A stretch of 64,000 bases of DNA from Opitutia bacterium. GTDB taxonomy: Bacteria > Verrucomicrobiota > Kiritimatiellia > CAIQIC01 > Lenti-01. Below the pieces are notes generated by a model. It made no database searches and had not been told where the DNA came from. It was given only the letters and a program-made list of their open reading frames with translations. Positions 20,539-45,749 of this stretch are shown piece after piece. The stretch lies in contig SABN01000001.1 of assembly GCA_009928955.1 (NCBI GenBank), positions 11,994-75,993 on the forward strand, written 5' to 3'. A program made the translations under genes and the position numbers. The first letter of the stretch is position 1, and each line of letters begins with the position of its first letter.

Positions 20539-20673
20539 GAACCGGCCTCCGGCGTGTCATCGCCAACCCTGCGTCCTTTGTACCGCTCGCCGACGCGGGC
20601 GGCAAGGGGCATCCGCCCCGCGCGAAAAATATCTCCCCATTCCGGCGCGCAAGACCCATACTGTCCCCCGAAC

Positions 20674-21579: not shown

Positions 21580-21698
21580 CCGCATCCTTCGGATTTGTCG
21601 GTTGGCCGCCACCGCCAAACAATTTCGCATTGATTTTCCGGCCTTCCGGGCGCACCCTTCCTTTCGAACTTCCACCACTCAACCCACAAGGAATCTCC

Positions 21699-22727
21699 AT
21701 GTCCCACCAGGTCCTCATCACGCGCGACTTCGACCACATGAGCGAAGTGGCCGCCGGCTTCGTCCAGGAACGCATCGCCCGCGTGCTGGCGGAACGCAAA
21801 TCCTTCGTCCTCGGCCTGGCCACCGGCACGTCCCCCACCGGCGTCTACAAGCACCTCGCCAAGGCCGCCAACGGCGGGAAGCTCGACGCCGCCCGGATCC
21901 GAAGCTTCAATCTCGACGAATACGTCGGACTGCCGGGCGACAATCCCCAGGCCCGCGCCCTGCATCCTGAAAGCTACAGCTTCTTCATGGTCCAGGAATT
22001 CTTCGGCCTCCTGCGCAAGAAATTCTCCGAAACCAACGTGCCTTGGGGGTGCCTCGTCGACCAAGACCAGCTCGTGCGCGAACTGAAGGCGAATCCCGGC
22101 GATTGGCATGAACAAGGTGCCGACAACGGCAAGGCCGTCGTCATCGATCCCAAGGCCCCATCGGAGTACTTGCGCTGGGTGCGCGCGGAAATCCTGGACG
22201 CCTACGAGCGAAAGATCAAATCGCACGGCGGCATCGACCTCCATCTGGTCGGCGTCGGCGGGCGCGGCCATGTCGCCTTCCACGAAGCGGGAATCCCCTT
22301 CGAGGGCAACCATATGCTCCTCGTCCGGCTCGACGAGAACACCGTCGAGAACGCCGTGGCCGACGGCCATTTCGCCCGCAAGGAAGACAGCCCCCGCTAC
22401 GCGATCTCGATGGGCGCGGAACTCGTCTACCAGGCCCGGTGCGTCGTTCTCCTGGCCTCCGGCAAGCGGAAAGCCGAACCCGTCGCCACCTCCCTCGCCG
22501 AAGACCCCTCCGCCGCCGTGCCCATTTCCCACGGACAAATCCATGCGAAACGCGGCGGCGAGATGCTCTACGTGATCGACCGCGATGCCGCCTCCGGCGT
22601 CCTCGAACGGCGCGCCGAAATCGAAAAACGCGGCATCGTCATCGAGGATCTCTCCTCCGGCTCCGCGGCGCGCCGCGTGGAGGACCTGAAGTTCTTCCGC
22701 AATCCCGCTTCGGGAATGATGGAATAA
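21699..22727 (+). CDS. nagB: glucosamine-6-phosphate deaminase family protein
   Basis: It reads LGLATGTSPTGVYKHL and FNLDEYVGL, which are NagB signatures. At 342 aa it is longer than the classical enzyme. Confidence 0.78.
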   Translation: MSHQVLITRDFDHMSEVAAGFVQERIARVLAERKSFVLGLATGTSPTGVYKHLAKAANGGKLDAARIRSFNLDEYVGLPGDNPQARALHPESYSFFMVQEFFGLLRKKFSETNVPWGCLVDQDQLVRELKANPGDWHEQGADNGKAVVIDPKAPSEYLRWVRAEILDAYERKIKSHGGIDLHLVGVGGRGHVAFHEAGIPFEGNHMLLVRLDENTVENAVADGHFARKEDSPRYAISMGAELVYQARCVVLLASGKRKAEPVATSLAEDPSAAVPISHGQIHAKRGGEMLYVIDRDAASGVLERRAEIEKRGIVIEDLSSGSAARRVEDLKFFRNPASGMME

Positions 22728-22841
22728 CCGGCTTGGCGCGACGCCGCGATGTCCGCGCACAGGCGGGCGGCCCGCGCGTCCGTCGCCCCTCATCGCGCGG
22801 CACATGGTCTGGGCGCCGGAAGAGCGCACCGGCGCGCCGCG

Positions 22842-22862
22842 GTTTTCCACACCGTGGAAAAC
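22842..22862. terminator. 9-bp stem hairpin between convergent nagB and lolD (possible bidirectional terminator)
   Basis: The hairpin is gttttccac-acc-gtggaaaac. It has only a weak T tract. Confidence 0.35.
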
Positions 22863-22893
22863 GTTTCCGCCCCCCGGCGGGGGAACCGGCGGT

Positions 22894-23569
<676 letters not shown>

Positions 23570-23577
<8 letters not shown>

Positions 23578-24799
23578 AGCGCAGCGCCCCCACCGGATCG
23601 AGCCGCGCCGCCTGCCACGCCGGGATCACGGCCGCGAGCGTGCAGATCACCAGCACCGACGCGGCCACCAGCGCCACGTCGCCGGGCGTGGTGCGCGACG
23701 GAATCTCCGCCAGATGGTAGAGCTCCTTGGGGAGCAGCTCCATCCCGAAGCGGTCGTTCAGCACGCGCAAGAGCGCGTTGCGGTATTTCAGCACGAGCAG
23801 GCCGCTGGCGATGCCCAGCGTGGTGCCCAGCACCCCTTCGATCCAGCCCTGCCAGAAGAACACCCGCATGATCGAGCCCGACGAGAACCCCAGCGACCGC
23901 AGCAGGCCGATCTCGCGGGTCTTCTGCACGGTGACGGTGATCAGCGTGTTGGTGATGCCGAAGGCCGCGACGATGGTGATGAAGATCAACAGGAAGAACA
24001 TCATGTTCTTCTCCACGCGCAAGGCGGCGAAGAGCTGGTGGTTCTGCTCCATCCAGGTGCTCACCCGCGCGTCCGGCCCCAGCCGGGAACGCAGCTCGGC
24101 GGCCACCGTTTCCGCCGCGTAGGGATTGTCCGTCATGACCTGGATGGCTTCCAGGCCGGCGCCGGCGCAGAAATCGCGCGCCTCCCACAGCGAGGCCACC
24201 ACGTAGCCCATGTCGAACTCCCACATGCCGATCTCGAAGATGCCCGCGACCGTCATCTCCGACGGCAGGCGGATCTCGTCTTCCGAAAGGAAGGTCGCCG
24301 GCGAATAGACGGTCAAGGCGTCGCCCACCCCCACGCCGAGCCGTTCGGCCAGGTCGCTGCCGATCACCACCGCGCCGTCGGCCACCGAGAACTCGCCGGC
24401 CACCATGCTCTGCGGGATGCGGCTGACGCGCGCCTCGCGCGCGGGATCGACGCCGCGGATCATCGGCGTCTCGACCTGCCCGTTGGGCTTCTGGATGAAA
24501 ACGAGGCTCTGCAGGAACGGCGCGGCGCCCTTCACGCCCGGCACGGCCTCGATGGCCTCGCACAGGCTGTCCTCTTCGCCGGACAGTCCGTTCCGGACGG
24601 AGACCGTCAGGTGGGCGTTGAAGTCCAGGATCTTGTTGCGCCACATCTCGTCGAAGCCGGCCATGACCGACAGCACGATGATCAGCACGGCCACGCCCAG
24701 CAGCACGCCCAGCACCGACAGCACCGTCACCACGGAAAGGAAGGTGCGCTTCGGCTTGAGGTACTTCAGCGCGAGGAACAATGAGAACGGGAGCGTCAT
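23570..24799 (-). CDS. lipoprotein-releasing system permease (LolC/LolE family, FtsX-like)
   Basis: It starts at MTLPFSLFLALKYLKPKR, a typical LolC/E N-terminus. The in-frame ATG is at 24799, with an ATGA overlap with the lysS stop. Confidence 0.88.
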
Positions 24800-26274
24800 T
24801 CGGCGGGGGCCGGCGGCGCGTCCGGCTTGGGTTCGCGGAGCTTCATCTGCGGGAAGAGCATCACGTCGCGGACGCTTTCCTCGCCGGTCAGGACCATGAC
24901 GAGGCGGTCGATGCCGATGCCCATGCCGCCGGCCGGCGGCATGCCGTGCTCGAGGGCGCGCAGGAAATCCTCGTCGATCTTGGCGGCGTCGCCGGCGGCC
25001 TGCTCCGCGAGGCGGGCGCGTTGGTCGAGCGGGTCGTTCAGCTCGGTGTAGCCCGGGCACAGCTCGCGGCCGCGCACCACCAGCTCGAACACGTCCACCA
25101 GCGCCGGATCGTCCTCGCAGCGCTTGGCCAGCGGCACCAGCTCCGCCGGCAGCCGCGTCACGAACGTCGGCTGGATCAGGGTCTTTTCGACCAGCTTGTC
25201 GTAGACCTCGTGGGTGATCTGCGCATGGGTCATCTCGTTCGGGATGTCCAGCTCCTTCGCCCGGGCCCATTCGCGCGCGGACGCAACGGAACGTTCGAAC
25301 CAATCGGCGCCGGCCTTCTCGCGCACCAGGCCGTGATAGGTCGCGACGCGCCACGGGGGCGCCAGATCGATGGGCTCCTGGCCTTCCTTCCCGACCGTCA
25401 TCGCGCCGCAGATCTCCTGCGCGGCGCCGCTGACGAGATCCTCCACCAGGCGCATCATCGTGCGCACGTCGCCATAGGCCTCGTAGATCTCCAGCGCGGT
25501 GAACTCCGGATTGTGCGAGCGGTCCAAGCCTTCGTTGCGGTAGTTCTTGCCCAGCTCGAACACCTTGTCGTAGCCGCCCACGAGCAGCTGCTTCAGGTAG
25601 AGTTCCGGCGCGATGCGCATGTACATCGGCTGTCCCAGCGCGTTGTAGAACGTCTTGAAGGGATTCGCGATCGCGCCGCCGGCCATGGCCTGCAGCACGG
25701 GCGTTTCCACCTCGAAATAGCCGCGCGCCTCCAGGAAGCGGCGGATGTACGACAGGATGCGGCTGCGGGCGTTGAACACCTTGCGCACGTCCGGATTCGC
25801 GATCAAATCCAGGTAGCGCTGGCGGTAGCGCACTTCCGTGTCCTGCAGCCCGTGCCATTTCTCCGGCAACGGATGCAGGGCCTTGGACAGCAGCTCCCAG
25901 CGCAGCACCTTCACCGACGGCTCGCCCGTCCGCGTGGTGAACAGCTCGCCTTCCACCCCGAGGAAATCGCCGAGATCCAGCGCGCGGAACGCCGCGAAGG
26001 ACTCGTCGCCCAGCGCATTCTTCTGCACGTAGATCTGGAACTTGTCCGTCCCGTCCTGCGCGTGCGCGAAAATGCTCTTGCCCATCTCGCGGACGGCGAC
26101 CAGGCGCCCCGCGATCCGCACGGCCTTGCCCTCGGCGAAGCCCGCGCGGATCTCGGCCAAGGGGCCGGTCCGCTCAAACGCCCGCCCGTAGGGACGGTGT
26201 CCCGCCGCCTTCAGCGCCTCCAGATGGGCCAGCCGCTGGTTGCGGAACTCGATTTCATGCGCACTCAATTCCAT
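24796..26274 (-). CDS. lysS: lysine--tRNA ligase (class II)
   Basis: It has an OB-fold N-domain and class II motifs (FRNEG, GMGIGIDRL). The start is at MELSAHEIEF. Confidence 0.93.
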   Translation of the reverse strand: MELSAHEIEFRNQRLAHLEALKAAGHRPYGRAFERTGPLAEIRAGFAEGKAVRIAGRLVAVREMGKSIFAHAQDGTDKFQIYVQKNALGDESFAAFRALDLGDFLGVEGELFTTRTGEPSVKVLRWELLSKALHPLPEKWHGLQDTEVRYRQRYLDLIANPDVRKVFNARSRILSYIRRFLEARGYFEVETPVLQAMAGGAIANPFKTFYNALGQPMYMRIAPELYLKQLLVGGYDKVFELGKNYRNEGLDRSHNPEFTALEIYEAYGDVRTMMRLVEDLVSGAAQEICGAMTVGKEGQEPIDLAPPWRVATYHGLVREKAGADWFERSVASAREWARAKELDIPNEMTHAQITHEVYDKLVEKTLIQPTFVTRLPAELVPLAKRCEDDPALVDVFELVVRGRELCPGYTELNDPLDQRARLAEQAAGDAAKIDEDFLRALEHGMPPAGGMGIGIDRLVMVLTGEESVRDVMLFPQMKLREPKPDAPPAPAE

Positions 26275-26409
26275 GATGGTCCTCGCCTTGAAAAACGCGC
26301 CCACCCTACCCTCCCCCTGCCCCGAAATCCAGCGCATTCTCCCCGCGCGGACGTTCGCCGGACGGCATCCCGCCCCCTCCGCCCGGCACGGGCTCCCGCG
26401 CTGGACGCG

Positions 26410-26954: not shown

Positions 26955-28283
26955 CTAATAGCGAATGTTCACGCCCAGGATCAGGCGCTTGTCCACATAC
27001 TCCACGAAATCGAAGTTGGAGGCCACTTCGTCGTAGGTGGCCTCCAGATAGATGCGGAGGAACTTGCCCGGCGCGATGTAATCGACGCGCGCATGCCCTT
27101 CCATGCGCTGGTCCCGCCGATCCTTGGTCACGCCTTCATGCGTCACGAGGTCCAGATAGTCGTCCTCCCGGTAGACGCCGCGCACATAGAAGGTGGTGCT
27201 GGGCTTCCATCGGTAGCCGAGCCCCGCCCAGCCGCTGATGTATTCCATCCCGTTGCCCTGGTAGAAGGACGACCATTGCGTCCCGTTGAAGCCGCCGCAG
27301 CGGAAGGTGAGCTTCTCCGTCATGAACCAATCCGCCGACGCATTGAAGTTGAACGAGATCTGGTCGTGGTCGATGCGGACGCCGGTTTCATCGATCTGGA
27401 CGTCCTCCTCGCCGATGTCCGCGTCTTCGAAGCGGGCCTGGAACGGGCGCGCATAGTATTCCAGCCCCCCCCCGACGCTGTAGACCACCTTGTCCGTGCC
27501 TTGGGCCTTGAGCCCCAGCCGCAGCGTGGTCAGTTCGGCCGCCCCATCGGTGCCTTCCTGGTATTGGAGACCTTGGCGAAGCGTCAGGAATGCGTCGGTC
27601 TTGTCCGTAAGCCCCAGCGAGCCGTCGAATTGCCAGATGTGTCCATCCAAATCCAGTCCGGGCGGGACCCCCAGATCCTTCGGATCGAGCCGGTCGTGCG
27701 TCTCGTTGTCGTAATGGACGCCGGAATAGCGGTAGGACAGCGCCAGTTCCAGCTTGTCCGATACGCGTCGCGAAAGGGAAGCGCCCAATTGGTTGACCTC
27801 GCGCTGGAGATCCAGCGTGTTGCTGTCTTCCACCATTTCCCCCGCCAAGTTGGAGGATTCGATGTCGGAGGAATGCCGGTCGAGGTCGTCGAGGGATCGA
27901 TAGCTTTGGATGAGTTCGAGCAGGGAGCGCCGCCCGTTGCCGTACCGCAAGATGAGGCTGTCCCCAAAAGTGTTGAGATTCCGGTTCTTCTCGGTGGTGT
28001 ATTCCCGCTCCGAATAGAACAAGTTCCCTTGGATGGAAAAACAATTGGTTTCCGACGAGGAGCTGAATTTCAATCCCAGCTCCGGCTCGAAAAAGGTGTC
28101 TTCGACCTCATCGAAGCGATCCTTGTAGACATTTGAATCGTAGGTGATGTTCAAATCCAGATAAGGACTGAAGACCCACGAAAAGAGGCCCACGCCATTG
28201 CCGGGACCGGCAAAGGCGTCGATCGACAGGCTCAGGAGCAGAAATACACCCAGCTTGCGCGCGCGATGTACACACGTGTGCAT
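26955..28283 (-). CDS. putative outer-membrane beta-barrel protein
   Basis: It has a signal peptide (KLGVFLLLSLSIDAFA) and alternating hydrophobic, Tyr/Gly-rich strands. The C-terminus is ...GVNIRY, with an aromatic last residue typical of OMPs. Confidence 0.6.
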   Translation of the reverse strand: MHTCVHRARKLGVFLLLSLSIDAFAGPGNGVGLFSWVFSPYLDLNITYDSNVYKDRFDEVEDTFFEPELGLKFSSSSETNCFSIQGNLFYSEREYTTEKNRNLNTFGDSLILRYGNGRRSLLELIQSYRSLDDLDRHSSDIESSNLAGEMVEDSNTLDLQREVNQLGASLSRRVSDKLELALSYRYSGVHYDNETHDRLDPKDLGVPPGLDLDGHIWQFDGSLGLTDKTDAFLTLRQGLQYQEGTDGAAELTTLRLGLKAQGTDKVVYSVGGGLEYYARPFQARFEDADIGEEDVQIDETGVRIDHDQISFNFNASADWFMTEKLTFRCGGFNGTQWSSFYQGNGMEYISGWAGLGYRWKPSTTFYVRGVYREDDYLDLVTHEGVTKDRRDQRMEGHARVDYIAPGKFLRIYLEATYDEVASNFDFVEYVDKRLILGVNIRY

Positions 28284-28375
28284 CCCATCATTTGGCACTT
28301 TCGCGGATTCGTTGTCAACAAACACTAGATTAAAAAGGAATAAAAAGCGCTCTATCCGCCCAAGACGGGCTGTTT

Positions 28376-30169
28376 TCAGGCCCGGGCGCGCAGGGCGAAC
28401 AGTCCGGCATAGACGCCGTTTGCTTGCACAAGCTGTTCATGCGCACCGGATTCCACGATCCGACCCTCCGAGAGGACGAGAATTCGGTCTGCGACTTGAA
28501 CGGTTGAAAAGCGGTGGCTGACCACGATGGAGGTCTTGCCGGCGAATATTTTCACAACCGATTCCAGCAATTGGCGTTCCGCCTTTGCATCCAGCGAGCT
28601 CGTCGGCTCGTCGAGCATCACGAAAGGCGCATCTCTCACAAAGGCCCGCGCCAGCGCCACCCGTTGCCACTGCCCCTCGCTGAGTTCCGATCCTCCCCCA
28701 AACAGCCGCCCCAATGGAGTGTCATATCCCGCCGGAAGCTGCTCGATCAGGCCGGCCGCCCCCCCCCGGCGCGCCGCCTCCGCAATCCGAGGATCCCCGG
28801 GCGGAATCGCGACATCGCCCATCCGCACATTTTCGCCGGCCGTCATCTGATACCGGACGAAATCCTGGAACAAGGCGCTGAACGAGGCCCGCAACGCCTC
28901 CAGGTCGAACTCCCGGATGTCCGTTCCATCGATCAGGATCCGGCCCCCGGTCGGATCGTACAGCCGGCACAGGAGCTTCACCAGCGTCGTCTTGCCCGAA
29001 CCGTTTTCGCCGACCAGCGCCACGTGCTCCCCCGCCCGGATGGTCAGGTCGAGGTCGCGCAACACATCCCGGTCCATTCCGGGATAGCGGAAGCGGACAT
29101 GCTCCAGCCGGATTCCCTGCGCGATCCGGGACGGCATCGGTTTCGGATGCTCCGGCGAACGGACGCGGAGCGGCAGCCCGAGGAAGCGGTAGAAATGGGA
29201 AATGAACAGCGAATCCTCATAGAGCGAGGCCAGACTGCCCAGCACCCCGGAAAAAGCGGATTTTCCCCGTTGGAATCCGCCATAGAGCAGCGCCAGATCG
29301 CCCAAGGTCATGGCGTTGCCCCGCATCCGCAGATAGACGATTCCCAAGCCCGCGACCATGGCCAGCATCGACAAGGCCTCCGCAACGAATTCGGCGCCGG
29401 CGCGATGCCGCGTCAGCGCCAGCCGGCTCCGGCGCAACCGCCCGCGCAACTCCCGGTGCTGCCGGCGCAGCTCGTTCCCATTCCCGCTCAAGCGGATTTC
29501 CTTGGCAAACGGCAGCGCGGTCAGCAACAGATGGAGATAGCCTGCATAGCGCTCGGCCGCGCTCTGGGAAATCCGCCAGCGATGCCAGCGCCGGGAATTC
29601 CAGATCCGCGCCAGCGCGCCCGGCAAGGCAGCGACGATCAAGACCGGCAGCAGCAGCCCCTGCGACACCCACAACACGCCCGCCACCGAACCCAGCGCGA
29701 TCGCGCCGCCCCCCAACTGCACCAGGTTCCGCACGATGCTCGTGGGGCGCGACATCGCCTCGGACTGCGCCATGCGCATCTGGTCGTGATAGGCAGAAGT
29801 CTCGTAGTACGCCAAATCCAGCTCGATGGATTTTTCCTGCATCGCGTCCTGCACGTGGTCCGACACCGCCGCCGACTGGGCGTCGGCGACGATGGACGAA
29901 AGGGCGCGGCAAATCCATCCGGCCAAGACCACGGCCCCCACCCCCGGCGCCAAGACCAGAAGGCCATGGACGTCGCGGGTCCCTTCCGTTTGCGCCAAGA
30001 ATCGGCCCGCCGCATCCACCACGTGGCGCGTCAAAACCAGCGCGGCCACCGGCAGCAATCCTTGCACCCCGATCACCAGCGCCTGAAGCAGCGTCCACCC
30101 CCGCGCGCTATCCCACACCAGGCGGACCGCTTGGCGCAAATGCCGCAATCTGTCGCGATGCTTCTTCAT
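28376..30169 (-). CDS. ABC exporter, fused permease/ATPase (MsbA/peptide-exporter type, no C39 peptidase domain)
   Basis: The in-frame ATG is at 30169 (MKKHRDRLRHL). It has a 6-TM domain followed by Walker A GENGSGKTT, LSEGQWQR and Walker B MLDEPTS. There is an ATGA overlap with the upstream gene. Confidence 0.9.
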   Translation of the reverse strand: MKKHRDRLRHLRQAVRLVWDSARGWTLLQALVIGVQGLLPVAALVLTRHVVDAAGRFLAQTEGTRDVHGLLVLAPGVGAVVLAGWICRALSSIVADAQSAAVSDHVQDAMQEKSIELDLAYYETSAYHDQMRMAQSEAMSRPTSIVRNLVQLGGGAIALGSVAGVLWVSQGLLLPVLIVAALPGALARIWNSRRWHRWRISQSAAERYAGYLHLLLTALPFAKEIRLSGNGNELRRQHRELRGRLRRSRLALTRHRAGAEFVAEALSMLAMVAGLGIVYLRMRGNAMTLGDLALLYGGFQRGKSAFSGVLGSLASLYEDSLFISHFYRFLGLPLRVRSPEHPKPMPSRIAQGIRLEHVRFRYPGMDRDVLRDLDLTIRAGEHVALVGENGSGKTTLVKLLCRLYDPTGGRILIDGTDIREFDLEALRASFSALFQDFVRYQMTAGENVRMGDVAIPPGDPRIAEAARRGGAAGLIEQLPAGYDTPLGRLFGGGSELSEGQWQRVALARAFVRDAPFVMLDEPTSSLDAKAERQLLESVVKIFAGKTSIVVSHRFSTVQVADRILVLSEGRIVESGAHEQLVQANGVYAGLFALRARA

Positions 30170-31392
30170 GGTCCGGGGGGGGCTTCCGCCAGGGAAATGC
30201 GCCGGGAACGGCCGCGCAACGCATCCCCCGCCAAACGGAAGGGACGGAGGCAGGCGTACAGCGGATAGAGGGCGCCCGGCAAGGCCATTTGGTTCAGTTC
30301 CACCGCGCCCGGCACGAACAGCAGGCGGGACAGGAAGCGCCAGCGATCCCGCATCCGCTCCCGGGTCTGGAGCGCGAAGCGGCTCTGCCGGACAATGCCT
30401 GTTTGAAGAGAAGTTTCCGCCAGCAACCGGGCCGCCGCCATCTCGGCCAAGCGGCGCGCCGCCGCATCCAGGCGCGATTCCGGCCGGAAGGCTTCGGGCA
30501 ACGGACACGCCAGCAGAATCTCCGCCAGTTGCGCGCCCACCCACAGGCTCCGCTTCTGCCCGAAGCGAGAAGCCTCCCGCAACAGGCCGGCCCAGTCCGC
30601 GCCGGGAAACGCCGACAACAACATGGCCGCATCGGCCACCGAGGAAAGCTTGGCCCACATTTCGTTGGCGCCATCCAGACAGACGGCCAGCAGCATCGCC
30701 TCCGGGCCGGGCGCCAAAAGACTCCGGCCCCCGTCCATCGCCAGCGGCCGGCAAGCCTGCGCCAGGAATTCGGCGGTGCGCGGCCCGGAAAGCGCGTGCG
30801 AAATCAAAACGGGCTTGAGATCCAAATGGAGCGCCTCCCCCGGCTTGCGCAGCGACCAATCCTGCAGCGACGCCAGATAGCGCGCCCGGCTGGCCGTGGA
30901 CGGAATCTCGCGGGGCACATATCCTTCCTGTTCCAGCAGGCCGACCGCGCGCAGCAAATCCTCCCGCCGCACGACGAGGTCCAGATCCTCGAACTGCCGC
31001 ATCGAGGGGCTGCCATAGGCCAGCAGGGCCAGCGCGGGACCCTTGATCGGCACCAGCCGGATCCCGTTCGCCTCCATGAGGCGTTGCAGCCGGTGCAGGG
31101 TGGCCGTCGCCCGGAGGTTGTGCGCGGCGATGGCCATGTAATCCCGATGGAAACAGGCCAGGAATTCGGCCGGGACGACCTCGGCCTTCCTCTTCGCCGC
31201 CGTCTTCAACGCCTGATAGGCCAAGGGAACCACATGGTGGTTCATGGCCAAGGTCCGGAGCCGAGATCCATCGACCGGTCGGCCGTGGAGCCATCCATCG
31301 GCCAAGGAGCCGGAACGAGCCGGGCGGGCGCAAGCGCAGAGCCACTCCATCTCGGCGCTTGGAACGCGCGGCATGGTCAGCGCCGTTCTCAT
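30166..31392 (-). CDS. uncharacterised nucleotidyltransferase family protein (NTP_transf_5-like)
   Basis: It reads LVPIKGPALALLAYGSPSMRQFEDLDLVVRREDL, typical of the family seen in lasso/RRE-associated clusters. There are ATGA overlaps at both ends. Confidence 0.7.
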   Translation of the reverse strand: MRTALTMPRVPSAEMEWLCACARPARSGSLADGWLHGRPVDGSRLRTLAMNHHVVPLAYQALKTAAKRKAEVVPAEFLACFHRDYMAIAAHNLRATATLHRLQRLMEANGIRLVPIKGPALALLAYGSPSMRQFEDLDLVVRREDLLRAVGLLEQEGYVPREIPSTASRARYLASLQDWSLRKPGEALHLDLKPVLISHALSGPRTAEFLAQACRPLAMDGGRSLLAPGPEAMLLAVCLDGANEMWAKLSSVADAAMLLSAFPGADWAGLLREASRFGQKRSLWVGAQLAEILLACPLPEAFRPESRLDAAARRLAEMAAARLLAETSLQTGIVRQSRFALQTRERMRDRWRFLSRLLFVPGAVELNQMALPGALYPLYACLRPFRLAGDALRGRSRRISLAEAPPGP

Positions 31393-32009
31393 CGGGTTGG
31401 CGGATCCAAGATCAGGTCGTACGGCTTGCGGCAAGTCCAGCGCTGCTCCCGCGGAATCCAGCAGGCGACCGTTTCTCCCCGATGGATGAACTTGGTGAAA
31501 TCCCCGGCGGCGCCGGCAAAGCGCGCCGCCAAGATCCGCGGCCGCCAGAGCAAGCGCATCAGCCGGCTGGCGCGGAACAGCCGATAGACCGGAGCCCAAG
31601 GAAACAGCAACAGGATCCGCAGGCGGCGCGCCCCATGGCCCAACCCGGCCCGGCGGCGGCCCGCAGGACCGCCCGCCACCGCGGCGCGAACGCCCCCGCG
31701 CTCGCGTTCCACCACCTTGCCGATCAGGAAGGCACGGGTGAGCGGCGCAGCATCGCGATGGAGATTCCCGTCGCCCCAGGTCAGGAATCCGTCGCCCGCC
31801 CTCTTCGCGATCCGGTGCGCGACGGCCTTGCCGGAGGAATGGAAGGCCACGACATCCCCCGGGCGCAGCGCGGCGAAGGAAACTGGAGAAACCCATAGGC
31901 AATCCCCGTCCACGAAAGTCCCCCGCATGCTTTCTCCGCGATAGGAAAGCCGGAGCAACTGCGAATGCGATGGGCGGGAAGCATCCATATGGGGTTCAAG
32001 CATACGCAT
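31389..32009 (-). CDS. S24/S26 (signal-peptidase/LexA-like) serine peptidase family protein
   Basis: It has the GESMRGTF (Ser nucleophile motif GxSMxPT-like), then GDVVAF...AHRI...TWGDGN...D...IGKVV. An extra C-terminal region of ~90 aa follows. Confidence 0.6.
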   Translation of the reverse strand: MRMLEPHMDASRPSHSQLLRLSYRGESMRGTFVDGDCLWVSPVSFAALRPGDVVAFHSSGKAVAHRIAKRAGDGFLTWGDGNLHRDAAPLTRAFLIGKVVERERGGVRAAVAGGPAGRRRAGLGHGARRLRILLLFPWAPVYRLFRASRLMRLLWRPRILAARFAGAAGDFTKFIHRGETVACWIPREQRWTCRKPYDLILDPPTR

Positions 32010-32101: not shown

Positions 32102-32118
32102 GGCCGGCAAACCCGGCC
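32102..32118 (-). other. GC stem-loop downstream of the Cys-rich ORF (possible attenuator/processing site)
   Basis: The sequence is ggccgg-caaac-ccggcc, a perfect 6-bp stem with no T tract. Confidence 0.3.
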
Positions 32119-32197: not shown

Positions 32198-32617
32198 CTA
32201 TTCGATCGGCTCCGGCGGCTCGTCGTATCCCGCCGGTTCCGGCGGCTCGCCGTATCCCGCCGGTTCCGGCGGGGCCGGATATTCATATCCGGACGGCTCC
32301 GGATACGAAGAGGTTTCATACCCGCCATCCTCCGTCCCGGAGGCGGCCGCAACGCCGAAGCCCGAACCCGACAGACAGTACACCTTGGCGCTGCTTCCGG
32401 CGGGCCAGCAAAACGTGCCCGCGCTCGATCCCGTCCGGCAGTCGTTGGCCGCGCTCGCCCCATTGGGCTCGCAGATGGGAATCGATGCATTGTTCATCCC
32501 GGCCGGGCAATCCGCCGCGCCATCCCCGACGCTGCAGGTGTCGCCCAAGATCGGCGCCACCCGCCCCATGTCGATGCTGACGGGTTTTTCGTATTTGAGG
32601 CGCGGTTTTTCGGACAT
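32198..32617 (-). CDS. Cys-rich acidic 139-aa protein; candidate RiPP precursor (PqqA/lasso-like leader, six-Cys core, PEPxGY tail repeats)
   Basis: A strong RBS precedes the ATG. The leader is MSEKPRLKYEKPVSIDMGRVAPILGDT. Cys residues sit at 28, 37, 49, 60, 70 and 81. The tail is YPEPSGYEYPAPPEPAGYGEPPEPAGYDEPPEPIE. Confidence 0.6.
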   Translation of the reverse strand: MSEKPRLKYEKPVSIDMGRVAPILGDTCSVGDGAADCPAGMNNASIPICEPNGASAANDCRTGSSAGTFCWPAGSSAKVYCLSGSGFGVAAASGTEDGGYETSSYPEPSGYEYPAPPEPAGYGEPPEPAGYDEPPEPIE

Positions 32618-32625: not shown

Positions 32626-32631
32626 CTCCTT
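32626..32631 (-). promoter_or_regulatory. Shine-Dalgarno AAGGAG for the Cys-rich ORF
   Basis: The plus strand reads ctcctt, 8 nt upstream of ATG 32617-32615. Confidence 0.6.
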
Positions 32632-32715: not shown

Positions 32716-35700
32716 TCAGGGTTGCGGCCGGATTTCAATCACTCGCGGCTCGGATGCGGCGAAGGCGTCCTCCGGGAAAAGCAGCCAGAGGTAGGTGATC
32801 TCCACGGGGTTGCGAGCCAAATCCTCCGGCAGGGTCCGCCATTCCCGGGCATCTGGGCTGTAGAGGATTTGGCCGGGGATCGACGACCCTTCCGCCAAAT
32901 CCACGACCAGATTGGTCACCCACATCGGAACGTCATAGCCGATGGCGATATACCCCCCCGCTCCCGACTTGCCGGTCCACTGGGTGTTCGGGTCGCCATC
33001 CACCGCCGCCCAGCCGTTGGTGTGTTCCGGCCCGTCGTCGCTGGTCACCACCGTCATCGGAAAACTCCCGGCATCCGTGAATTCGGCGGGCGACGCGGCC
33101 TTCGCAACCGCGCGGGGCTTCGGCTCCGGCGTCCGCTCGCCATACACCTCCCACTCGGCGATGCACACGAAACGGTTGGCCGAGTTGGAAAGGCCCGTCA
33201 GCCGCAGATACCGCGCCGACCGCCCGTCCAGCGCCCAATCCTCCCAGCCGCGGTGCTCGCCCGCGCTCGCCTCCACCAGCGGCGACCAACTCGCGCCGTC
33301 CAGCGACGATTCGATGCGGTACTGGTGGACCCGGTAGCTCCAGTCCCAATTCAACAGCCGGATGCGCGACACCGAAGTCGCCGCCTTCAGGTCCAGCGTG
33401 ATCGTCCCGGGCGGTTCGTTCGTCCAGAACGTGTAGCCGTAGTTGGCGCTGGACATATGCACGGCGTCAGTCAAGTACTCCGGCTTGGTCGCCTGCATCC
33501 CCGAGATCGTGCTCCCGTTCGACGCCCGCGCCCAATTCACGCCGATGTCGTCGTCCAGCGCCGTCGCCTCCACCAACCGGTCGGCCCCGCCCGGAACCGC
33601 GATCCGGAAGGTCGCCGTTTCGTTTTCGCCGTTGGCGTCCTCGCTCGCCGCCAGCGTCACCGTTTGCCACGCGTTCCAGTTCGCCGGCGTGAACGTCAGG
33701 TTCGCCCCGCTCTTCACGAAGAGGTTCGCGTCCCCCGCGCTGCGGCTCACGCCGACCGAGACGCTCCCTGCGGGAGCGCTGTCCAGACGCACATGGAAAC
33801 GTCCTTCTCCGCCCTCGCGGACATTGACGGCGGTCGCCAAACACTCGATCTGCCGGGGTTCGACGGGCGCGGCATACACCTCCCACTCGGCGATGCAGAC
33901 GTAGCGGTTGGCCGAGTTGGAGAGGGCGGTAAACCGCAAATACCGGGCCGTCCGGGCCGCCACCGCCCAATCCTCCCACCCGCGATGTTCACCCGTGCTC
34001 GCGTCGATCAGGGCCGACCAGTTCGCGCCGTCCAGCGAAGACTCGATGCGGTAGCGATGGGAGCGATAGCCCCAGTCCCAGTTCAGCAGCCGGATGCGCG
34101 ACACGGTCGTCGCGACCTTCAGGTCCAGCGTCAGCGTCCCGGGCGACGCCGGATTCGTCCAGACCGGATAGCCATAGTTGACGCTGGAGGCGTGCACGCC
34201 GTCGATCGCCCGCTCCGGCGCATACGCCTGCGTCCCCGTGATCGTGCTGCCGAGCGAGGCCCGCGCGCGGTTCTCGCCGATGTCGATGTCCAGCGCGGTC
34301 GCCTTCATGACCCGGTCCGCCACGCCGGGCGCCGAGATCCGGAACGTCGCCGTCTCGTTGGCGCCGTTCTCGTCTTCGCCCGCCGCCAGCGTCACCACCT
34401 GCCACGCGGCCCAGTTCGCGGGCGTGAACACCAGCGCCGCCCCGCTCTGCACGGAAAGGCGTTCGTCCCCGGAGGCCCGGCTCACGGCCACCGCGACGTT
34501 CGCCTCCGGGGCGCGGTCCAAGCGCACATGGAAGCGTCCTTCGCCGGCTTCGCGGACATTGACGGCCGCGGAGGAGAGCTCCGGCCGGGGCAATTGGAAC
34601 TGGCTGGAAGGGCCATAGACCTCCCACTCGGCGAGGCACACGTATTGGTTCGCCGAGTTGGAAAGGCCCGTGAAGCGCAAATAGCGGATCGACAGATCCT
34701 CCACCGCCCAATCTTCCCAGCCGCGGTGTTCCCCCTCGCTCGCATCCACCAGCGGCGACCAGGTCGTTCCATCCAGCGAGGATTCGATCCGGTATTGATG
34801 GGCCCGAAGGCCCCAATCCCAATTCAGCAGGCGGATCCTCGACACCCGCATCGCCTCCTGCAGATCCAGCGTCATCGTCCCCGGCGAGGCTCGGTTCGTC
34901 CAGATGGTGTATCCGTAGTTGGCGCTGGCGCCGTGCACCCCGTCGATCAACCATTCCGGCTTGGTCGCCTGCGTTCCCGTGATCCGGCTTCCGTTCGAAG
35001 CCAGCGCCAGGTTCGGGCCGATGTCGATGTCCAGCGCCGTCGCCTCCACGAACTGGTCCGCCACGCCGGAAGCTGAAACCCGGAACATCGCCGTTTCATT
35101 GTCGCCGTTCCCGTCCGCCGCGGCCGCCAGCGTCACCGCCTGCCAGACATTCCAGTTCGCCGGACTGAACAGCAGGCCCGCGCCGCTCTTCACCGAAAGG
35201 ACGGATGCTCCTCCGCTCCGCGCGACCGTCACGGCCGTGGCGGCGGCCGGAGCATAGGCCAACCGCACGTAGAAACGGCCCTCGCCGCCCTCCCGCACAT
35301 TGACATCGGTCGCGCTGAGCAGGATCGGCGAGACATGGAACGTGCGGACCACGTCCGGCGCCGGCTCCCAATTGCCGTCGCCGGCTTGGAAGGCCATGAC
35401 CGAAACCGCGCCGGCGCCCGTAAACGAAAGATGCGGACCGTCCAAAATCCTGCCCGGTCCGTCAACCACCGCGAAGCCCACCGGCAGGCTGCTCGATGAA
35501 ATCGCGGACAAACCGACCCCGTCGGGCGCAAGGGGATCGTCGATGCCCGGGAATTCAATCGTCTGGGCGGCCTTGGCCACGACCAAGGCGCCGGCCGAAC
35601 CTCCCGCGAAATTCGGATCCTCGATCTCGGCGGAAACCGCGTAGCGGCCCGCAAGAACCGGCGGCGCGTCCCCGCTCCCGTAGGTGATCGCGACCGCCAA

Positions 35701-38700
35701 GCCGGCGGGAACCGTCGCCGCCGTCACGCGCCGGGGCGTTCCATCGTAGGTCTGCTCCAAGCCTGCCAGCGCGACCGTCGCGACCGCCTTGGCCACCACC
35801 CACGTGCCGGTGGTTGAAGCCTGGTGATTTCCATCGACCACGGTGGCGACCACGGCATAGCTCCCGGCTTCCGTCGGGACCGCCGTCCCGCCGTCGTAGC
35901 GGAATTCGACCGCCAAGCCGGCGGGAACCGTCGTCGCCGTCGCGTTCTTCGGCGTGCCATCGTACACCGGCTCCAGCGCGCCCAGCAAGATCACCGCCTC
36001 GGCCTTGGCCACCACCAGCGTGCCGGTGGCCGATCCCACGAAGATGTCATCGGCCACGACGCCGACCACGGCATAGCTCCCGGCCTCCGTCGGCGCGGCG
36101 GCGCTTCCATCGTAGGTGAAGCGGACGGCCAATCCGGCCGGTTCCGTTCGGGCCGTCGCGACGCGCGGCTGGCCGTCGTAGCCCTGCTCGAGATCCTGCA
36201 GGAAAATCTCCGCGGAAGCCGGCGCGCCGTTCGTCATCTCGTTGCCGGCGATGCGCAAGGCCGGGTCGCCGAGCAGATTGTAGACCGCGAAGGTATCGCG
36301 GCTGGACAGATCGCTCCGCAGCGACCGGCGCGCCCGCAAGAACGCCAAGCCCAGCGTACCCACGCCGTCCTGGAGGACGGCGCGATAGAACGCCTCGCCC
36401 AGTTCCATCGCGGGAGCGTTGAACGAGAGCCCCGAGGGAGCCAAGAGCGCGACCGCCCCGCCTTGCGGACGCCTCATCAACAGCTCGCCGAGGCTGTCCG
36501 TCGCGGGCAATTCATAACGCCCCAACAGGCAGCTCAGCGCCACCGTGATCGGCGGCCGGGTGGCGTTGTCCATCTTCGCGACGTCGGCCGCCGTCAACAG
36601 CCCCTTCCCGCTGAGGTTGAAGAGCCCGCCATGGCCCGTGTAATGGATGAACCCCGCGCCGGCATGGAAGGCGTCCATCAGACTCGCGCGCGCCGGGCCG
36701 ATGGCCATCTGGTCCAGATCGATGCGGCTGGCCACCGAATACGGCGCCGTCGCCCACTCCGCCAGCTTGGTGTTTGAATCCGAGAAATTCCCCGCCGAAT
36801 TGCCTTGATCGGCCACCAGCACCAGCTGGTTCTGCCACGCCGAACCGAATCCGGCCTCGTAGACCTTGATCTTCGCGATCATCGCCGCCAGATCTGCCGC
36901 CGTCAGCGCCGGCAGGCGGCCGATGGCGACATCCGGCCGGTCATCGCCGCCGGTGTCCGCCAGCAATCCGTCCGATGCGCAGACCCCGTCGGGGGTTTGG
37001 ACCAGCAACGGCGGCAGCGGATTCACTTCGTCAAACGTGGCGCCCAGATAGTCATAGTGTCCCCCGCCCGCCAGCACCACCATCTTCGGCGCTTGCGCCC
37101 AGGTCGCCGCGGCATGGCGCAACAGCGCCGGAATCGCCTGGGGCGTGCGCAGGCCCCCGGTCATCAGGTCGCAGAGGTCTTCAAACACCGCCACGCCGAC
37201 GCGCAGCCCTTGGCCCGCGCGGTAGTCGGCCAACTCCTGCGCGGCCGGGGCCAGCGCGCGCGAAGCGATCACCAGATAGTCGATCCGGTTCGTCTCCGAC
37301 AAGAACCAGGCGTCCGCCGCCGCCGGCTCCGGCACCAACATCGGAACCGCGGACGATTCGATCACGGCGAAGCGCTCGTTTTCGGCGGCCACCGCCCAAG
37401 CCTTGGCGGAAAGTTCGCCCTTCGCGTCGGCGATCCATGTGGGATTCCCCGCTTCGTCCAACGCCAGCGCCAGCGGATCGGAATAGGCGCCCGCCGAAAA
37501 CGCCGGCGCCTGGCCCGCGCGGAAGGGCGCGACGGGGGCGGAAGGCGTCAGGTCGCGATCGAACGACGCCTCGATCCAGTCCACCACGAAGAAGCTGTGG
37601 CTCTGGCCCGGCTTCATCACGCCGTTCACCATGACCGTGTTGACGCCGTTCACGACCGCCGCGCCGGGGATCGTCAGCTCGGCTTCGGCCGTCTCCTGGC
37701 CGTCGAAGGCGATCGAACCCGCCACGGCGCCGTTGAAACTGATTTCCGCCAAGTGGTCCGGATGGTTGGTCGTGGCGGACCAGCCCATGAGGCGGACCTT
37801 CAGGTTCAGGTCGCCGCCCGCGAAGCCGGTCAGATCCAGCGGGAAGCGGGGCGCCAACAGATCGTTGGTCTGGCTGACGACGCCCGCCCAGAAGTAGAAG
37901 TCCTCCGGCATTTGCGTCATGCTGAACAGGAACCGGTCTTCTTCGAAGTGGAGCCGCACGGGGAAGACCGTCCCGCCGGAGGAAGCCCCCGGCTCGCGGC
38001 GGGGCATGGCGAGGCCCTTGCCCGCCGAAATCAGATAGGCCGCCTCATGCGAATACCAATCGCGCACCGGCGGCCGGGCGTGGAACACCAAGCGGCCGCG
38101 CTCCGCGTCGAAGAGCACCGGCACCGGAAGCCCCTGCTCGGCGATCTTCAACTCCCCCGCTGCGGCCTGCGCCCGCACGTCTTCGAGGGCGAGGCCCATG
38201 CCGGCGGCGATCGAAGTCAACGCCACGCCATGGATGCCTTCTTTTTTCACCAGGACTTTCAGCCGGGAGGACGGTTCCGCGGGAACCGGCGCGGTGCGCG
38301 GCGCAGGCGCGAGCGCCTTGGCCGCCGCGGCTTTCTTCGTCCGGACGGCCTTGGCCGCCGGCGGCGGAACCGCGAACCGAACGGCATGGGTGCCGAGACC
38401 CCGGGCCTCGCCGGAAAGCTCGATTTCTTCCAGGCGGTATGTCCCTTCATCGCCTTCGCGGGCTTCGGGATCGACCAGCCCATAGACGGAACCCGCCTCG
38501 TTGAACGCCGACGGCACCAGGATGTCGCTCATCCGGGTTTCCTTCCCGGTCTCCGGATCGACGCGATGGACGAAGAAACCCGCCGTCCCGAATTCGGAAC
38601 CCGTCCGCCACGCCACGCGCCCGCCGTCTTTCGTCCATTCGCCCCAAACCTCGGCCACCTCGGCGCGGGTGGAGTCCCTTGTGCTGATCCCCAAGTCGAC

Positions 38701-41700
38701 GGCCAGATGGATCTCTTCCTCGCCCGAGGCGGGCGGCCGGCCGCCGACGGTAAACGCCCCGGTCCAGGCGTAATCGCCGGTCGTGCCGGAGATCGCGTCG
38801 CTGTCGACCGCGTCGTCGCCGCCCGCCTTGGAGGCGGTGACGACGTCGTTCGTGCTGATGCCGGAGAGATCGAAGCGAATCACATAGGTTCCGGCCCGCT
38901 TGTCTGAGAACAGATAGTACCCGTCCGCGTCCGTGGTGGTCTCGGCCACGATGATCCCGTTGGTGTTCAGCAGCGCGACCGGCACATCGGCGAACCCGTT
39001 GGTCTCGCCGGGATTCTGGATGCCATCCCGGTTGGCGTCGAACCAGACGCGGTCGCCGATTGAAACCACCTGGAAAAAGCCCGCATCCACCGTGAAGTTG
39101 GTTTGACCGCTGCGCAGCGTCACGGTCGCGGTCAAGCCCGTGTCCGGCGCCGGATCGCTGTCCGTGGCGTCGTCGCCGACGTCCGCCACCGTGGTCAAAT
39201 AGCCCGGCGGAGGCGTGAAACCGATGAGATAGGCGCCCGGAACCAGATCCGTGAACGCATAGGCGCCATCCAGGGTGGTTGTTTCCACGCCCACCACGTT
39301 GGACGCGGCATTGTACAAGCGCACCACGACGTTGGGCAATCCCCGGTCGCCGGATTCCTGCTGCCCGTTCCAGTTCACATCTTCCCAGGTCCAGTCGCCG
39401 ATGGCGCCCAGCCGGTAGAAGCCCGCGTCCCAGCTGGTGTCGTCCGCGCCGCCGCTCAGCGAGAAGACCGCCGTGCGCCCCGTGCCGGCGGCGATGTCGC
39501 TGTCCAGCGCGTCGTCGCCGCCCTGATCCTGCGCCGCGGCAAAATAGTCCGGCGGCGGCGCGAACTCGAGGAAATAGGATCCGGCCGGCAGGTTCGTGAA
39601 GTGGTACGAGCCGTCCGCGCCGGTCGTTGTTTCCGCCAGCAGGTTCGACCCGGCGCCGTAGAGCCGCACCGTCACGTCTGCCAAGCCGGCCTCGCCGACA
39701 CCCTGGATGCCATCGCCATCGGCGTCGAGCCAGGCCCGGTCGCCCACGGTCGCCCACCCCTTCGGCACGATGACGACCGAACTGCTGTCGTTGTCGGCAA
39801 CGGGATCGAACAAGTCGCGGCCGGTCACGGTGGCGGTGTTGGTGATGTTCAAATCCGCGGTGTTTTCACGCACGGTCACGTGGACATGGAGCGTCGTGGA
39901 GGCGTTCACCGCCAGCGTCCCGATGGTCCAGGCCCCGGAACCCGCGCTGTAGGCGCCGTTGGAATGGCCGACGTACTGCACCTGCGGCGGCAACACGTCC
40001 GTGATGACCACTCCCGTGGCCGTGTCGGGCCCGTTGTTCGATGCGACCAGGATGTACGGGATGGTCTCCAGCATGTCTGGCGTGGCCTCGGCGACAAACT
40101 TCCGAACGCCCACGTCCGCGAAGACGACGCAGTTGGTCGTCGACGCTTGCAGCGGCGGCTGCAGGGGGCTGGAGACCGACGCGGTGTTGACCAGTTGCGT
40201 CACCAGCGAAGGCGCATCCACCGTCGCTTGGAACGTGACCACCAGCCTCCCTCCCGGCGTCAGATCTTGGCCGGAGACCAGCCCCGGCGGCGCGAAAGCG
40301 GGATTCGTCGCCACGCCGGACCGGAGGCTCGAAATCTCGATGTTGTCCAGATAGGCGTACTCGCCGCTCTCCCAGTTCTCGGTCCCCGGCGCGGCCTCGA
40401 ACCGGACCGTGGTTCCCGTGGAGATGTAGGCGGTGAGGTCGTAGCTGGCGGTGCCGCTGGCGGTGCCGCCAAATTGCTCGAGTTGCGTGAACGGACCGCC
40501 GGGACTCGTCGCCACCCGCACGGCCAGATATTCATTGGCGTCCAGCCCGACCGTCTGCCAATCGAACGACAGCGTGGCATTCGTTTCCGCGCTCAGGTCG
40601 GCCCACCGCCAAGCGGCCTCGTCGCCGACATAAAGATAATGCAGCGTCATCCGGCCATTCGTCACACCCACGTAATTTCCAACTGGGCCAGCCGTCCCCG
40701 CCGGGTCGTCCTCCTGCCAATCCACCGCCCAGTTCCGCGTGCCGTCCTGGCCGGAATAAGACACGGCATTGAATTCATCGCGGACGGTGCTGACCGTCGC
40801 GTTGGAGACCACGGCAAAGGCCGAATTCGGAACGTAGGTCAGGCCCGCCGGCAAGAGGTCCTCCACCGCGACGCCGGTTTGCGTCACGTTGCCGGTGTTC
40901 ACGACGGTCAGGGTGTAGGTGATCGCATCGCCCGGCGACAGGCAGGACCCGGCGGCGGAGGTCTTGGTCAAGTGCAGCCCATGCACGATCTCCACCAGCC
41001 CGGCATCCCACCGGGTGTCGTGGGTGCCCACCGGCAGGAAAAACGGCGCCGTTCTTCCGGTGGTCCGCGAAACATCGCTGTCGGCCGCGTCGTCGCCCCC
41101 TTGGTTCTGCAAGGTGAACATGAACCCCGGCGGCGCCGTGAATTCCAGGAAATACGTCGCCGGCGGCAGGTTGGGGAAGCTGTAGAATCCCGCAGCCGTG
41201 GTGTTCGTGGTGGCCACGAGGTTCGTGGCGGCATCGTACAGCTGGACCGCCACGCCGGGCATCCCGGTTTCGCTGCCGCCGCCTTGGAGCCCGTCGACGT
41301 CCACCTCCCGCCAGACGAAGTCGCCGATCGAGGCGGGCGGCTGGTGGAAGCCCGCGTCCCGGGTCATGTCGCTCATCCCCCCGGACAGCGCGAATGCCGC
41401 CGTGCGGCCCGTGGCGGGAGCGATGTCGCTGTCCAGCGCGTCGTTGCCGCCTTGGTCCTGCAACGCGGGCAAATGATCCTCAGGCGCGTCGAATTCCAAG
41501 AAATAGGTTCCGGAAGGCAGGTGGGCGAAGCCATAGGCCCCGGCGACGCCGCTGGTCGTCGTCGCCACCCAGTTCGACCCGGCGGCGTAGATCCGCACCG
41601 TCACGCCCGTCAGCCCGGGCTCGCCCCCGTCTTGGATGCCGTCGCCGTCCACGTCGAACCACGCCCGATCGCCCACGGAGTTCGCCACCGAAACGTTCGT

Positions 41701-45100: not shown

Positions 45101-45373
45101 CACGCGTCCGCCGACCGTGACATCCCCCAGGAACATCTGGTTCGAAACGCCCTCGTTGAACCGGATGTTGTAGACCGTTCCCGTGGGGAACCCCGCGCTG
45201 CCGCCGCCCGTGGCGGAATAGTTGTCGTTCGTGTCCGTGTAGGTCTGGTACGTCACCGTCGCGCTCGAAATCCCCTGCACCTGCGCCTGCGCGAAGGCCC
45301 CGCCCCATGCCAGCCAGACAAGCAGAAGCGCCCCGCATCCATGCACCCGACTTTTCTGGATTGTCGCTCTCAT
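42143..45373 (-). CDS. giant adhesin-like surface protein, upstream segment (signal peptide, ~330-aa unknown domain, 5 SdrD-B-like repeats, DUF11-like, start of lectin-like domain)
   Basis: It starts with a signal peptide (MRATIQKSRVHGCGALLLVWLAWGGAFAQA). The reading frame makes sense down to ...NWDSGDSFTF at the A5 run (42141-42145). The remaining track ORF (41480-42140) is Arg-rich out-of-frame overlap. Confidence 0.85.
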
Positions 45374-45416
45374 TGACCGGCGGAAGAACCCCGAGAAGAA
45401 CTTTCCGCCTGTTCAA

Positions 45417-45445
45417 ATAATATGGATAAAGCGCTATAATGGCAA
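45417..45445 (-). promoter_or_regulatory. candidate sigma70-type promoter of the giant adhesin gene (TTGCCA-17 nt-TATTAT)
   Basis: On the minus strand the -35 is at 45445-45440 and the -10 at 45422-45417, about 45 nt upstream of ATG 45373. It lies inside the AT-rich island. A 7-bp hairpin (ggcggaa...ttccgcc) sits in the predicted 5' UTR. Confidence 0.35.
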
Positions 45446-45708: not shown

Positions 45709-45749
45709 ATGAAAAAATGCGGAACCAATTGAAAATCAAGTGGTTCCGC
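45709..45749 (-). terminator. rho-independent terminator ending the long minus-strand operon
   Basis: A 9-bp perfect stem (gcggaacca / tggttccgc) with a 13-nt loop is followed on the minus strand by ATTTTTTC. It lies 56 nt after the HprK-like stop. Confidence 0.65.

Follow-up and report, generated by a model that had tools for sequence, protein, structure and literature searches.

The 64,000-nucleotide (nt) stretch of DNA analysed here (hereafter the window) corresponds to positions 11,994 to 75,993 of contig SABN01000001.1 (assembly GCA_009928955.1), assigned to an Opitutia bacterium of the Kiritimatiellia (Verrucomicrobiota). It exhibits on its minus strand a small open reading frame (ORF; 32198-32617, 139 amino acid long) with six regularly spaced cysteines. 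An initial annotation of the window regarded this ORF as a candidate precursor of a peptide that is made on ribosomes and modified after translation (RiPP). We describe here the ORF, its homologues, and its relation to a distant set of enzyme genes on the same strand that resembles the SynChlorMet cassette of NCBIfam and includes two radical S-adenosylmethionine (rSAM) enzymes.

The peptide gene and its family

The start codon of the ORF is preceded by a Shine-Dalgarno sequence AAGGAG (32626-32631, minus strand) located 8 nt 5' of the ATG, and the encoded N-terminus reads MSEKPRLKYEKPVSIDMGRVAPILGDT. Three parts can be distinguished in the peptide. The leader (residues 1-25, MSEKPRLKYEKPVSIDMGRVAPILG; 32543-32617, minus strand) is nearly invariant from residue 8 to residue 25 in the alignments. 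The core (residues 26-88; 32354-32542, minus strand), recognised from the alignments and from offset statistics, is made of six C-x2-3-G-x2-3-A units, with cysteines at positions 28, 37, 49, 60, 70 and 81 in the contexts CSVG, CPAG, CEPNG, CRTG, CWPAG and CLSG. The remaining part (residues 89-139 and the stop codon; 32198-32353, minus strand) is an acidic and variable Pro/Tyr/Gly tail, which contains three PEP(S/A)GY(E/G/D) units and ends in PPEPIE.

The ORF, the spacing of the AAGGAG sequence, the N-terminus, the six cysteines with their contexts and the three PEP units had all been described in the initial annotation, and a second reading of the sequence finds every one of them. The 27-nt DNA repeat reported there for the tail also exists, but Tandem Repeats Finder delimits it to 2.4 copies at 32207-32272 (94% matches), and three clean copies reaching to 32297 were not found. 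Similarly, the GC-rich stem-loop reported at about 32102-32118 is present (GGCCGG-GTTTG-CCGGCC), but the case for a terminator is weak, as a U-run is missing and nothing resembling a terminator was called at this site. A scan for terminators and promoters around the peptide gene called nothing. The 191-nt region 3' of the stop codon folds no more stably than shuffled sequences (z = 0.07), and for this reason we do not use the stem-loop as evidence.

The initial annotation had proposed sequence and profile searches with this ORF, and these recover a large homologous family. Searched against 5.8 billion proteins, the peptide returned 120 homologues (E-values down to 1e-52), all of them unnamed and mostly from metagenome-assembled genomes (MAGs) of Kiritimatiellia/Verrucomicrobiota. 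A profile of residues 1-88 added 132 further cluster representatives (50% identity), nearly all of which are peptides of 58-140 amino acids, and the family comprises more than 240 homologous clusters in total. Across phyla, hardly any variation is seen in leader residues 8-25 (KYEKPVSIDMGRVAPILG), and this near-invariance stops at G25. When the leader codons 8-25 of 25 loci are compared with those of the window, 172 synonymous and 28 nonsynonymous differences are counted, which indicates that the constraint acts on the protein. The ORF is a translated gene under strong constraint, composed of a leader, a six-unit core and a variable acidic tail.

Within the core, consecutive cysteines are separated by 9-12 residues. 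A glycine is found at +3 in about 70% of the Cys units and an alanine at +6/+7 in most, the cysteine being the one side chain that stays constant in every unit. Members of the superfamily have between 3 and 9 units. In the group of close homologues, the tails are rich in S/G/P/A/T/E/D and carry a net charge of about -7, with no conservation of their sequence, and the tail is missing altogether from homologues of 85-100 amino acids. The tails of Kiritimatiellia homologues (P0016, P0026, P0053, P0058, P0094, P0101 and others) exhibit their own lineage-specific tandem repeats, such as GTEPDTGGTAFP, and many of them terminate in GAF or TAFP, unlike the tail in the window. An AlphaFold2 model of the peptide based on a 31-sequence alignment has a mean predicted local distance difference test (pLDDT) score of 53.9, with values below 50 over residues 26-101 and no secondary structure. 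This result fits a peptide substrate and argues against a folded mini-protein. Taken together, the varying number of units, their spacing pattern, the lack of secondary structure in the AlphaFold2 model and the codon constraint support a modular peptide substrate.

The peptide shows no family match in Pfam or NCBIfam, and in NCBIfam none even at E<=10. The resemblance of the leader to PqqA, pointed out in the initial annotation, holds for the short K-P-x-x-I-D-(L/M) motif, which is present, but does not extend to a match with any PqqA model; as no Pfam or NCBIfam model is matched at E<=10, we take this likeness to be a short motif only. A PEP-CTERM sorting signal was also considered for the PEP-rich tail and ruled out, since there is neither a transmembrane helix nor an Arg cluster past the PEP motifs.

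The enzyme cassette and its linkage to the peptide

All genes of the locus are on the minus strand and are described in the order of transcription. The upstream part consists of four genes of SynChlorMet type. The ScmE-like protein (48553-50070) combines a PqqD-type RiPP recognition element (RRE), an rSAM domain with the motif CNLGCAYC and a SPASM domain (Pfam; TIGR04250, 381.8 bits). It is followed by a 23S_rRNA_IVP four-helix-bundle gene (48192-48572; Pfam E-value = 6e-28), then by a ScmD-like protein with two PqqD/RRE stretches (47582-48205; TIGR04248, E-value = 2.1e-14; Pfam PqqD), a ScmF-like rSAM/SPASM enzyme with the motif CNLHCRHC (46410-47585; TIGR04251, 341.6 bits) and a ScmC-like HprK-type P-loop protein with the Walker A sequence GHSTAGKS (45805-46413; TIGR04249, E-value = 5.5e-9). 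Two giant SdrD_B / Peptidase_C25 / F5_F8_type_C surface-protein genes (32716-45373; Pfam) then separate ScmC from the peptide gene.

The SynChlorMet models are the clear best NCBIfam matches of the four Scm proteins, all four scores being under the curated cutoffs (400 bits for ScmE, 400 for ScmF, 100 for ScmD and 125 for ScmC; the cutoff of the peptide model ScmA is 35 bits). The second-best NCBIfam match of ScmD is a lasso PqqD chaperone (lasso_PqqD_Strm, E-value = 1.5e-8), and the homologues of ScmC bear the precomputed Pfam assignment PF27840 ScmC. Both rSAM enzymes exhibit the CxxxCxxC motif and a Cys-rich SPASM C-terminus. Three RRE-like domains had been counted in the initial annotation; Pfam and NCBIfam likewise place one at the N-terminus of ScmE and two, as PqqD stretches, in ScmD, and these are the sole RRE domains of the locus. 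In a PDB sequence search with ScmE, the nearest protein of solved structure is SkfB, which forms thioethers (E-value = 3.8e-17). ScmE and ScmF are about equally far from WgkB, AhbD/NirJ, PqqE, the anaerobic sulfatase maturase family and the sactisynthases.

Four genes follow the peptide gene. The first encodes an S24/S26-type Ser-His peptidase resembling the signal peptidases of archaea and of the endoplasmic reticulum (31389-32009; Pfam Peptidase_S24, E-value = 3.4e-5), the second an NTP_transf_5 (PF14907) nucleotidyltransferase-fold protein (30166-31392; Pfam E-value = 1.6e-45), the third an ABC exporter that is an MsbA/ABCB-like half transporter (28376-30169; Pfam, NCBIfam and PDB relatives), and the last a BBP2_2 (EpsL-like) outer-membrane beta-barrel (26955-28325; Pfam E-value = 6.8e-6). 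The stop of S24 and the start of NTP_transf_5 overlap by 4 nt, as do the stop of NTP_transf_5 and the start of the ABC gene; a third 4-nt overlap joins Polysacc_synt_2 and ScmE. The S24 protein also matches NCBIfam sigpep_I_arch (E-value = 2.3e-11, under the cutoff of that model), and its only PDB match is a marginal one with SEC11C (E-value = 0.97). Its motifs G-x-SM (with the Ser), HR (with the His) and GD...D are invariant among 11 aligned homologues. From these sequence features, it is a candidate leader peptidase. The NTP_transf_5 protein has no PDB sequence match. The PDB relatives of the ABC exporter are generic ABCB/MsbA proteins only; as the exporter contains no C39 peptidase domain, a double-glycine leader processed by a C39-ABC exporter was ruled out.

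A hidden Markov model scan of all six frames of the window found no second peptide of this family. No small Cys-rich ORF was found beside the cassette either: the gap between ScmE and ScmD is occupied by the 23S_rRNA_IVP gene, and the gap between ScmC and the giant genes contains nothing Cys-rich.

Comparison with other genomes links the two ends of the locus. In the eight non-Kiritimatiellia loci that have upstream sequence (L001, L004, L006/L024, L025, L026, L027, L028 and L030), ScmE-ScmD-ScmF-ScmC directly adjoin the peptide gene without exception (8/8), and two of them (L025, L030) have it placed between ScmF and ScmD. The eight loci come, among others, from Desulfobacterales, Desulfobacteraceae, a Deltaproteobacteria MAG and Victivallales. 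A reverse scan of metagenomes, anchored on ScmC, yielded 25 loci in which ScmC has a peptide of this family downstream, at most a few hundred nt away; in the remaining loci with a good ScmC match, homologues of the giant surface proteins follow, or the downstream sequence is too short or uninformative. On the other side of the peptide, an S24-like gene is the 3' neighbour in every peptide locus with enough downstream flank, and a same-strand ABC gene, usually together with NTP_transf_5, is found downstream in all of these but L027 and L028. The BBP2_2 gene comes after the ABC gene in the Kiritimatiellia loci, in L001 and in L069, and further downstream in L006.

The giant genes are directly upstream of the peptide in all Kiritimatiellia-type loci (L008-L023, L029, L031 and L034-L053) and absent elsewhere. 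Two of these loci (L017 and L041) are one and the same 85.8-kb contig, in which ScmC and the peptide are separated by 13.4 kb, like in the window. The 13-kb gap in the window is thus explained by a conserved, Kiritimatiellia-specific insertion of giant genes (about 12.7 kb). The homologues are near-universally syntenic with rSAM/RRE genes, and not mostly without such neighbours. The initial annotation had taken the rSAM/RRE genes 13 kb upstream to be those that act on this peptide as their substrate. Comparative genomics lends this proposal strong support: given the synteny in both directions and the lack of a rival small ORF in the window, we consider it well supported.

The genes directly upstream of ScmE (about 50067-58261, minus strand; Pfam) encode a GT4 glycosyltransferase, a DUF3473 polysaccharide deacetylase, a Bac_transf priming transferase, a DegT aminotransferase, VanZ and a PglF-like Polysacc_synt_2 dehydratase, and form a polysaccharide or protein-glycan start module. 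The Scm cassette sits within polysaccharide loci in several phyla. In L001, in-frame fusions join Polysacc_synt_2 with ScmE and S24 with NTP_transf_5 (3275-6403 and 10248-12134). The 23S_rRNA_IVP / bAvd-like family recurs by the peptide or the cassette in unrelated loci (L001, 9000-9755; L002; L032). A distant version of the cassette, L069, has PIN, AbiEii, AAA_14/DUF4143 and DUF6036 nucleotidyltransferase genes inserted at 5862-7949 and 11870-13919; these are toxin-antitoxin or defence-type genes, and genes for a Glycos_transf_4 priming transferase and for a BBP2_2+DUF11 barrel border the locus.

Taken individually, the giant genes of the window extend over 32716-42102 and 41480-45373 (minus strand), with SdrD_B repeats, Peptidase_C25, MBG, DUF11 and F5/8 type C domains. 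Their presence coincides with long acidic peptide tails, and processing of the exported peptide by the C25 peptidase is one conceivable tie. The intergenic region 5' of the first giant gene (45374-45804) is AT-richer (GC content 0.586 over 44-46 kb, against about 0.66-0.68 elsewhere) and may be a promoter or regulatory region separating the Scm genes from the downstream genes. At the other end, the genes at 18088-26337 have unrelated housekeeping functions (a ComEC-like competence protein, a MacB-type ABC system and a class II Lys/Asp/Asn-type tRNA synthetase), which indicates that the cluster ends at the BBP2_2 gene.

Proposed maturation and alternative explanations

We propose, with a probability of roughly 85%, that the ORF encodes the precursor of a SynChlorMet-type RiPP cassette with two rSAM enzymes, split in this genome by two giant genes; this proposal relies on sequence comparison. 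In such a scheme, the Y-x-x-P...G motif of the leader would be bound by the RRE domains of ScmD/ScmE, and ScmE and ScmF would then modify the Cys repeats in an iterative fashion. The likeliest product would carry one Cys S-C thioether ring of the sactionine/ranthionine type per unit, because the cysteine is the constant side chain and SkfB the closest solved relative of ScmE. As the two enzymes stand no closer to this chemistry than to several others, thioether formation on the Cys units is a tentative suggestion, somewhat short of even odds. ScmC and the NTP_transf_5 protein might then add a phosphate followed by a phosphate-linked sugar or nucleotide group. A comparable case is pseudomycoidin, to which the kinase PsmK and the nucleotidyltransferase-like protein PsmN add phosphate and hexoses, PsmN being required for the hexosylation of the phosphorylated lasso peptide (PMC6993621). 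The S24/S26 peptidase would cut off the leader, probably after I-L-G25. This tripeptide fits a -3/-1 rule. Finally, the ABC exporter would secrete the product, possibly with the BBP2_2 barrel.

Several observations weigh against this proposal. The scores of all four Scm proteins fall short of the curated values (ScmE 381.8/400, ScmF 341.6/400, ScmD 53.5/100 and ScmC 35.8/125 bits), and neither the full peptide of the window nor its 88-residue N-terminal part matches the ScmA model at E<=10. In the window, 13 kb separate the peptide from the rSAM genes, and it may belong to a separate transcript. The residue accepting the crosslink is not identifiable from the units, in which Asp is not conserved, unlike in freyrasin, and there is no conserved C-terminal Ser to mark a phosphorylation site. 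Another possibility for the ABC exporter and the porin is a role in the surrounding polysaccharide pathway.

Two explanations would disconnect the peptide from the rSAM enzymes. The peptide might be handled by the downstream S24/NTP_transf_5/ABC module alone, the rSAM cassette having another target and merely sharing the polysaccharide locus. The arrangement of the window and of all Kiritimatiellia loci, where this module is contiguous with the peptide and the Scm genes are 10-13 kb off, would agree with such a division, as would the translational coupling of S24, NTP_transf_5 and ABC. However, other phyla place the peptide right after ScmC or between ScmF and ScmD, no alternative candidate precursor is found near the cassette, and the leader motif is of the RRE type in a locus where RRE domains occur only in ScmD and ScmE. 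We regard this explanation as very unlikely. Even more improbable, in our opinion, is an ordinary secreted Cys-rich protein of the surface or matrix, disulfide-bonded or metal-binding and without rSAM modification. It would account for the even spacing of the six cysteines, for the long acidic mucin-like tail and for the giant surface-protein and polysaccharide genes in the neighbourhood. Yet the N-terminus, as read from the sequence, has no Sec/Tat-type hydrophobic signal, AlphaFold2 gives no fold (pLDDT <50 over residues 26-101), a range of 3-9 units suits a modular substrate better than a fold, and synteny with the rSAM/RRE genes is near-universal.

A third alternative concerns only the chemistry and, being a variant of the SynChlorMet-type proposal, does not exclude it. 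The cysteines may undergo a reaction other than thioether formation (formylglycine-type oxidation, C-C crosslinks or epimerisation, catalysed by one or both rSAM enzymes) or act mainly as ligands in a metallophore-like product. The equal remoteness of ScmE/ScmF from several enzyme families leaves room for this, and the presence of two distinct rSAM enzymes hints at two distinct reactions. On the other hand, cysteine is the only invariant side chain of the units, a thioether synthase is the nearest to ScmE among proteins of solved structure, and thioethers are what rSAM/SPASM enzymes typically make of repeated Cys motifs (PMC10114670). We consider this variant possible, at perhaps a minority chance.

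A further possibility is that the modified peptide is a ribosomal scaffold joining a cell-surface glycan system, and not a diffusible natural product. The rSAM enzymes would crosslink the Cys units, ScmC and NTP_transf_5 would add a phosphate and a phospho-linked sugar to the peptide, and the acidic-tailed peptide would be exported as a primer, an anchor or a matrix glycopeptide of the surrounding exopolysaccharide. The hints that suggest it are the location of the cassette in polysaccharide loci, the overlap of Polysacc_synt_2 with ScmE and their fusion in L001, the closing BBP2_2 barrel and the insertion of the giant genes. At present we think this role unlikely.

Comparison with known systems

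As far as we found, SynChlorMet-type cassettes are known only as database models, in which the product and its chemistry are undescribed; our literature searches on the SynChlorMet cassette, on Kiritimatiellia RiPPs and on PF14907 retrieved no relevant paper. What is new here is the assignment to this cassette of an abundant, multi-phylum substrate family missed by the existing ScmA model, together with its leader, its repeat grammar (C-x2-3-G-x2-3-A in 3-9 copies) and a probable cleavage site. New as well are the linked module of S24/S26 peptidase, NTP_transf_5 and ABC exporter, the lineage-specific insertion of giant surface-protein genes and the recurrent setting in polysaccharide loci. With its parts defined in this way, a heterologous reconstitution can be designed, from which a new RiPP class might emerge, or a connection of exopolysaccharide biology with peptide modification. 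The case for new RiPP chemistry is strong and testable, the logic of leader, RRE, rSAM/SPASM and Cys repeat being itself familiar.

Among lasso peptides, the leader motif YxxPxLx3Gx5Tx, with YxxPxL at -17 to -12, is acted on by the PqqD-like B1 protein (PMC10368454). If cleavage occurs after G25, Y9, P12 and G18 of the window leader occupy positions -17, -14 and -8, which would put its Y-x-x-P...G in the lasso register; the Leu at -12 and the Thr at -2 of the motif are replaced by Ser and Leu, respectively. The loci of paeninodin and pseudomycoidin (PsmK, PsmN, PqqD-like B1, ABC) are similar in that HprK-like, NTP_transf_5-type and PqqD/RRE proteins co-occur with an ABC exporter. The window locus differs by having rSAM enzymes instead. 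A lasso peptide was ruled out, as the genes annotated in this locus and in the related loci showed neither an Asn-synthetase-like cyclase nor a B2 transglutaminase-like peptidase.

The PqqA/PqqD/PqqE system resembles the window in its PqqD-type chaperone and rSAM/SPASM enzyme, besides the short motif of the leader, but the cassette proteins match PqqE and PqqD only distantly. The peptide is not PqqA: in addition to the lack of a model match, its core is a Cys repeat and not Glu-x3-Tyr.

Closer in design are the sactipeptides and ranthipeptides (freyrasin/PapB, SCIFF/CteB, SkfB, QhpC/QhpD), which have in common with the window rSAM/SPASM enzymes that include an RRE, and a precursor in which Cys motifs recur. 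Freyrasin too has six repeated Cys units (PMC10114670), of the CxxxD type in contrast to the C-x2-3-G-x2-3-A units of the window. The window further differs by its two rSAM enzymes, a far longer precursor and the additional HprK-like, NTP_transf_5 and S24 genes. The maturase models of these classes (PapB, StsB, AlbA, SkfB) give distant matches under their cutoffs (PapB 76.5/340, StsB 103/625 and SkfB 61/300 bits).

The nearest system remains SynChlorMet itself, named in silico in NCBIfam/TIGRFAMs (ScmA TIGR04252, ScmC TIGR04249, ScmD TIGR04248, ScmE TIGR04250, ScmF TIGR04251). The window has the same set of four enzyme-cassette proteins in the same order, and in the non-Kiritimatiellia homologous loci a small peptide gene adjoins the ScmC/D/E/F cassette, in contrast to the window, where about 12.7 kb of giant genes split it. 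In L073, the ScmE score passes the cutoff (410.5 versus 400 bits), and a peptide of the window family is found beside the ScmC of that locus. A faint likeness to ScmA is visible in relatives of the window peptide (18.1 bits, E-value = 0.0023, for the L064 peptide; 14.5 bits for P0194). The ScmA model spans 49 positions, whereas the window peptide has 139 residues with six units and a 51-residue acidic tail. Judged from its sequence, the peptide probably works like ScmA and is distantly homologous to it, while not being a member by the curated test. As in RRE-type RiPP precursors generally, a near-invariant leader is followed by a variable core and tail, and both ScmE and ScmD carry PqqD domains.

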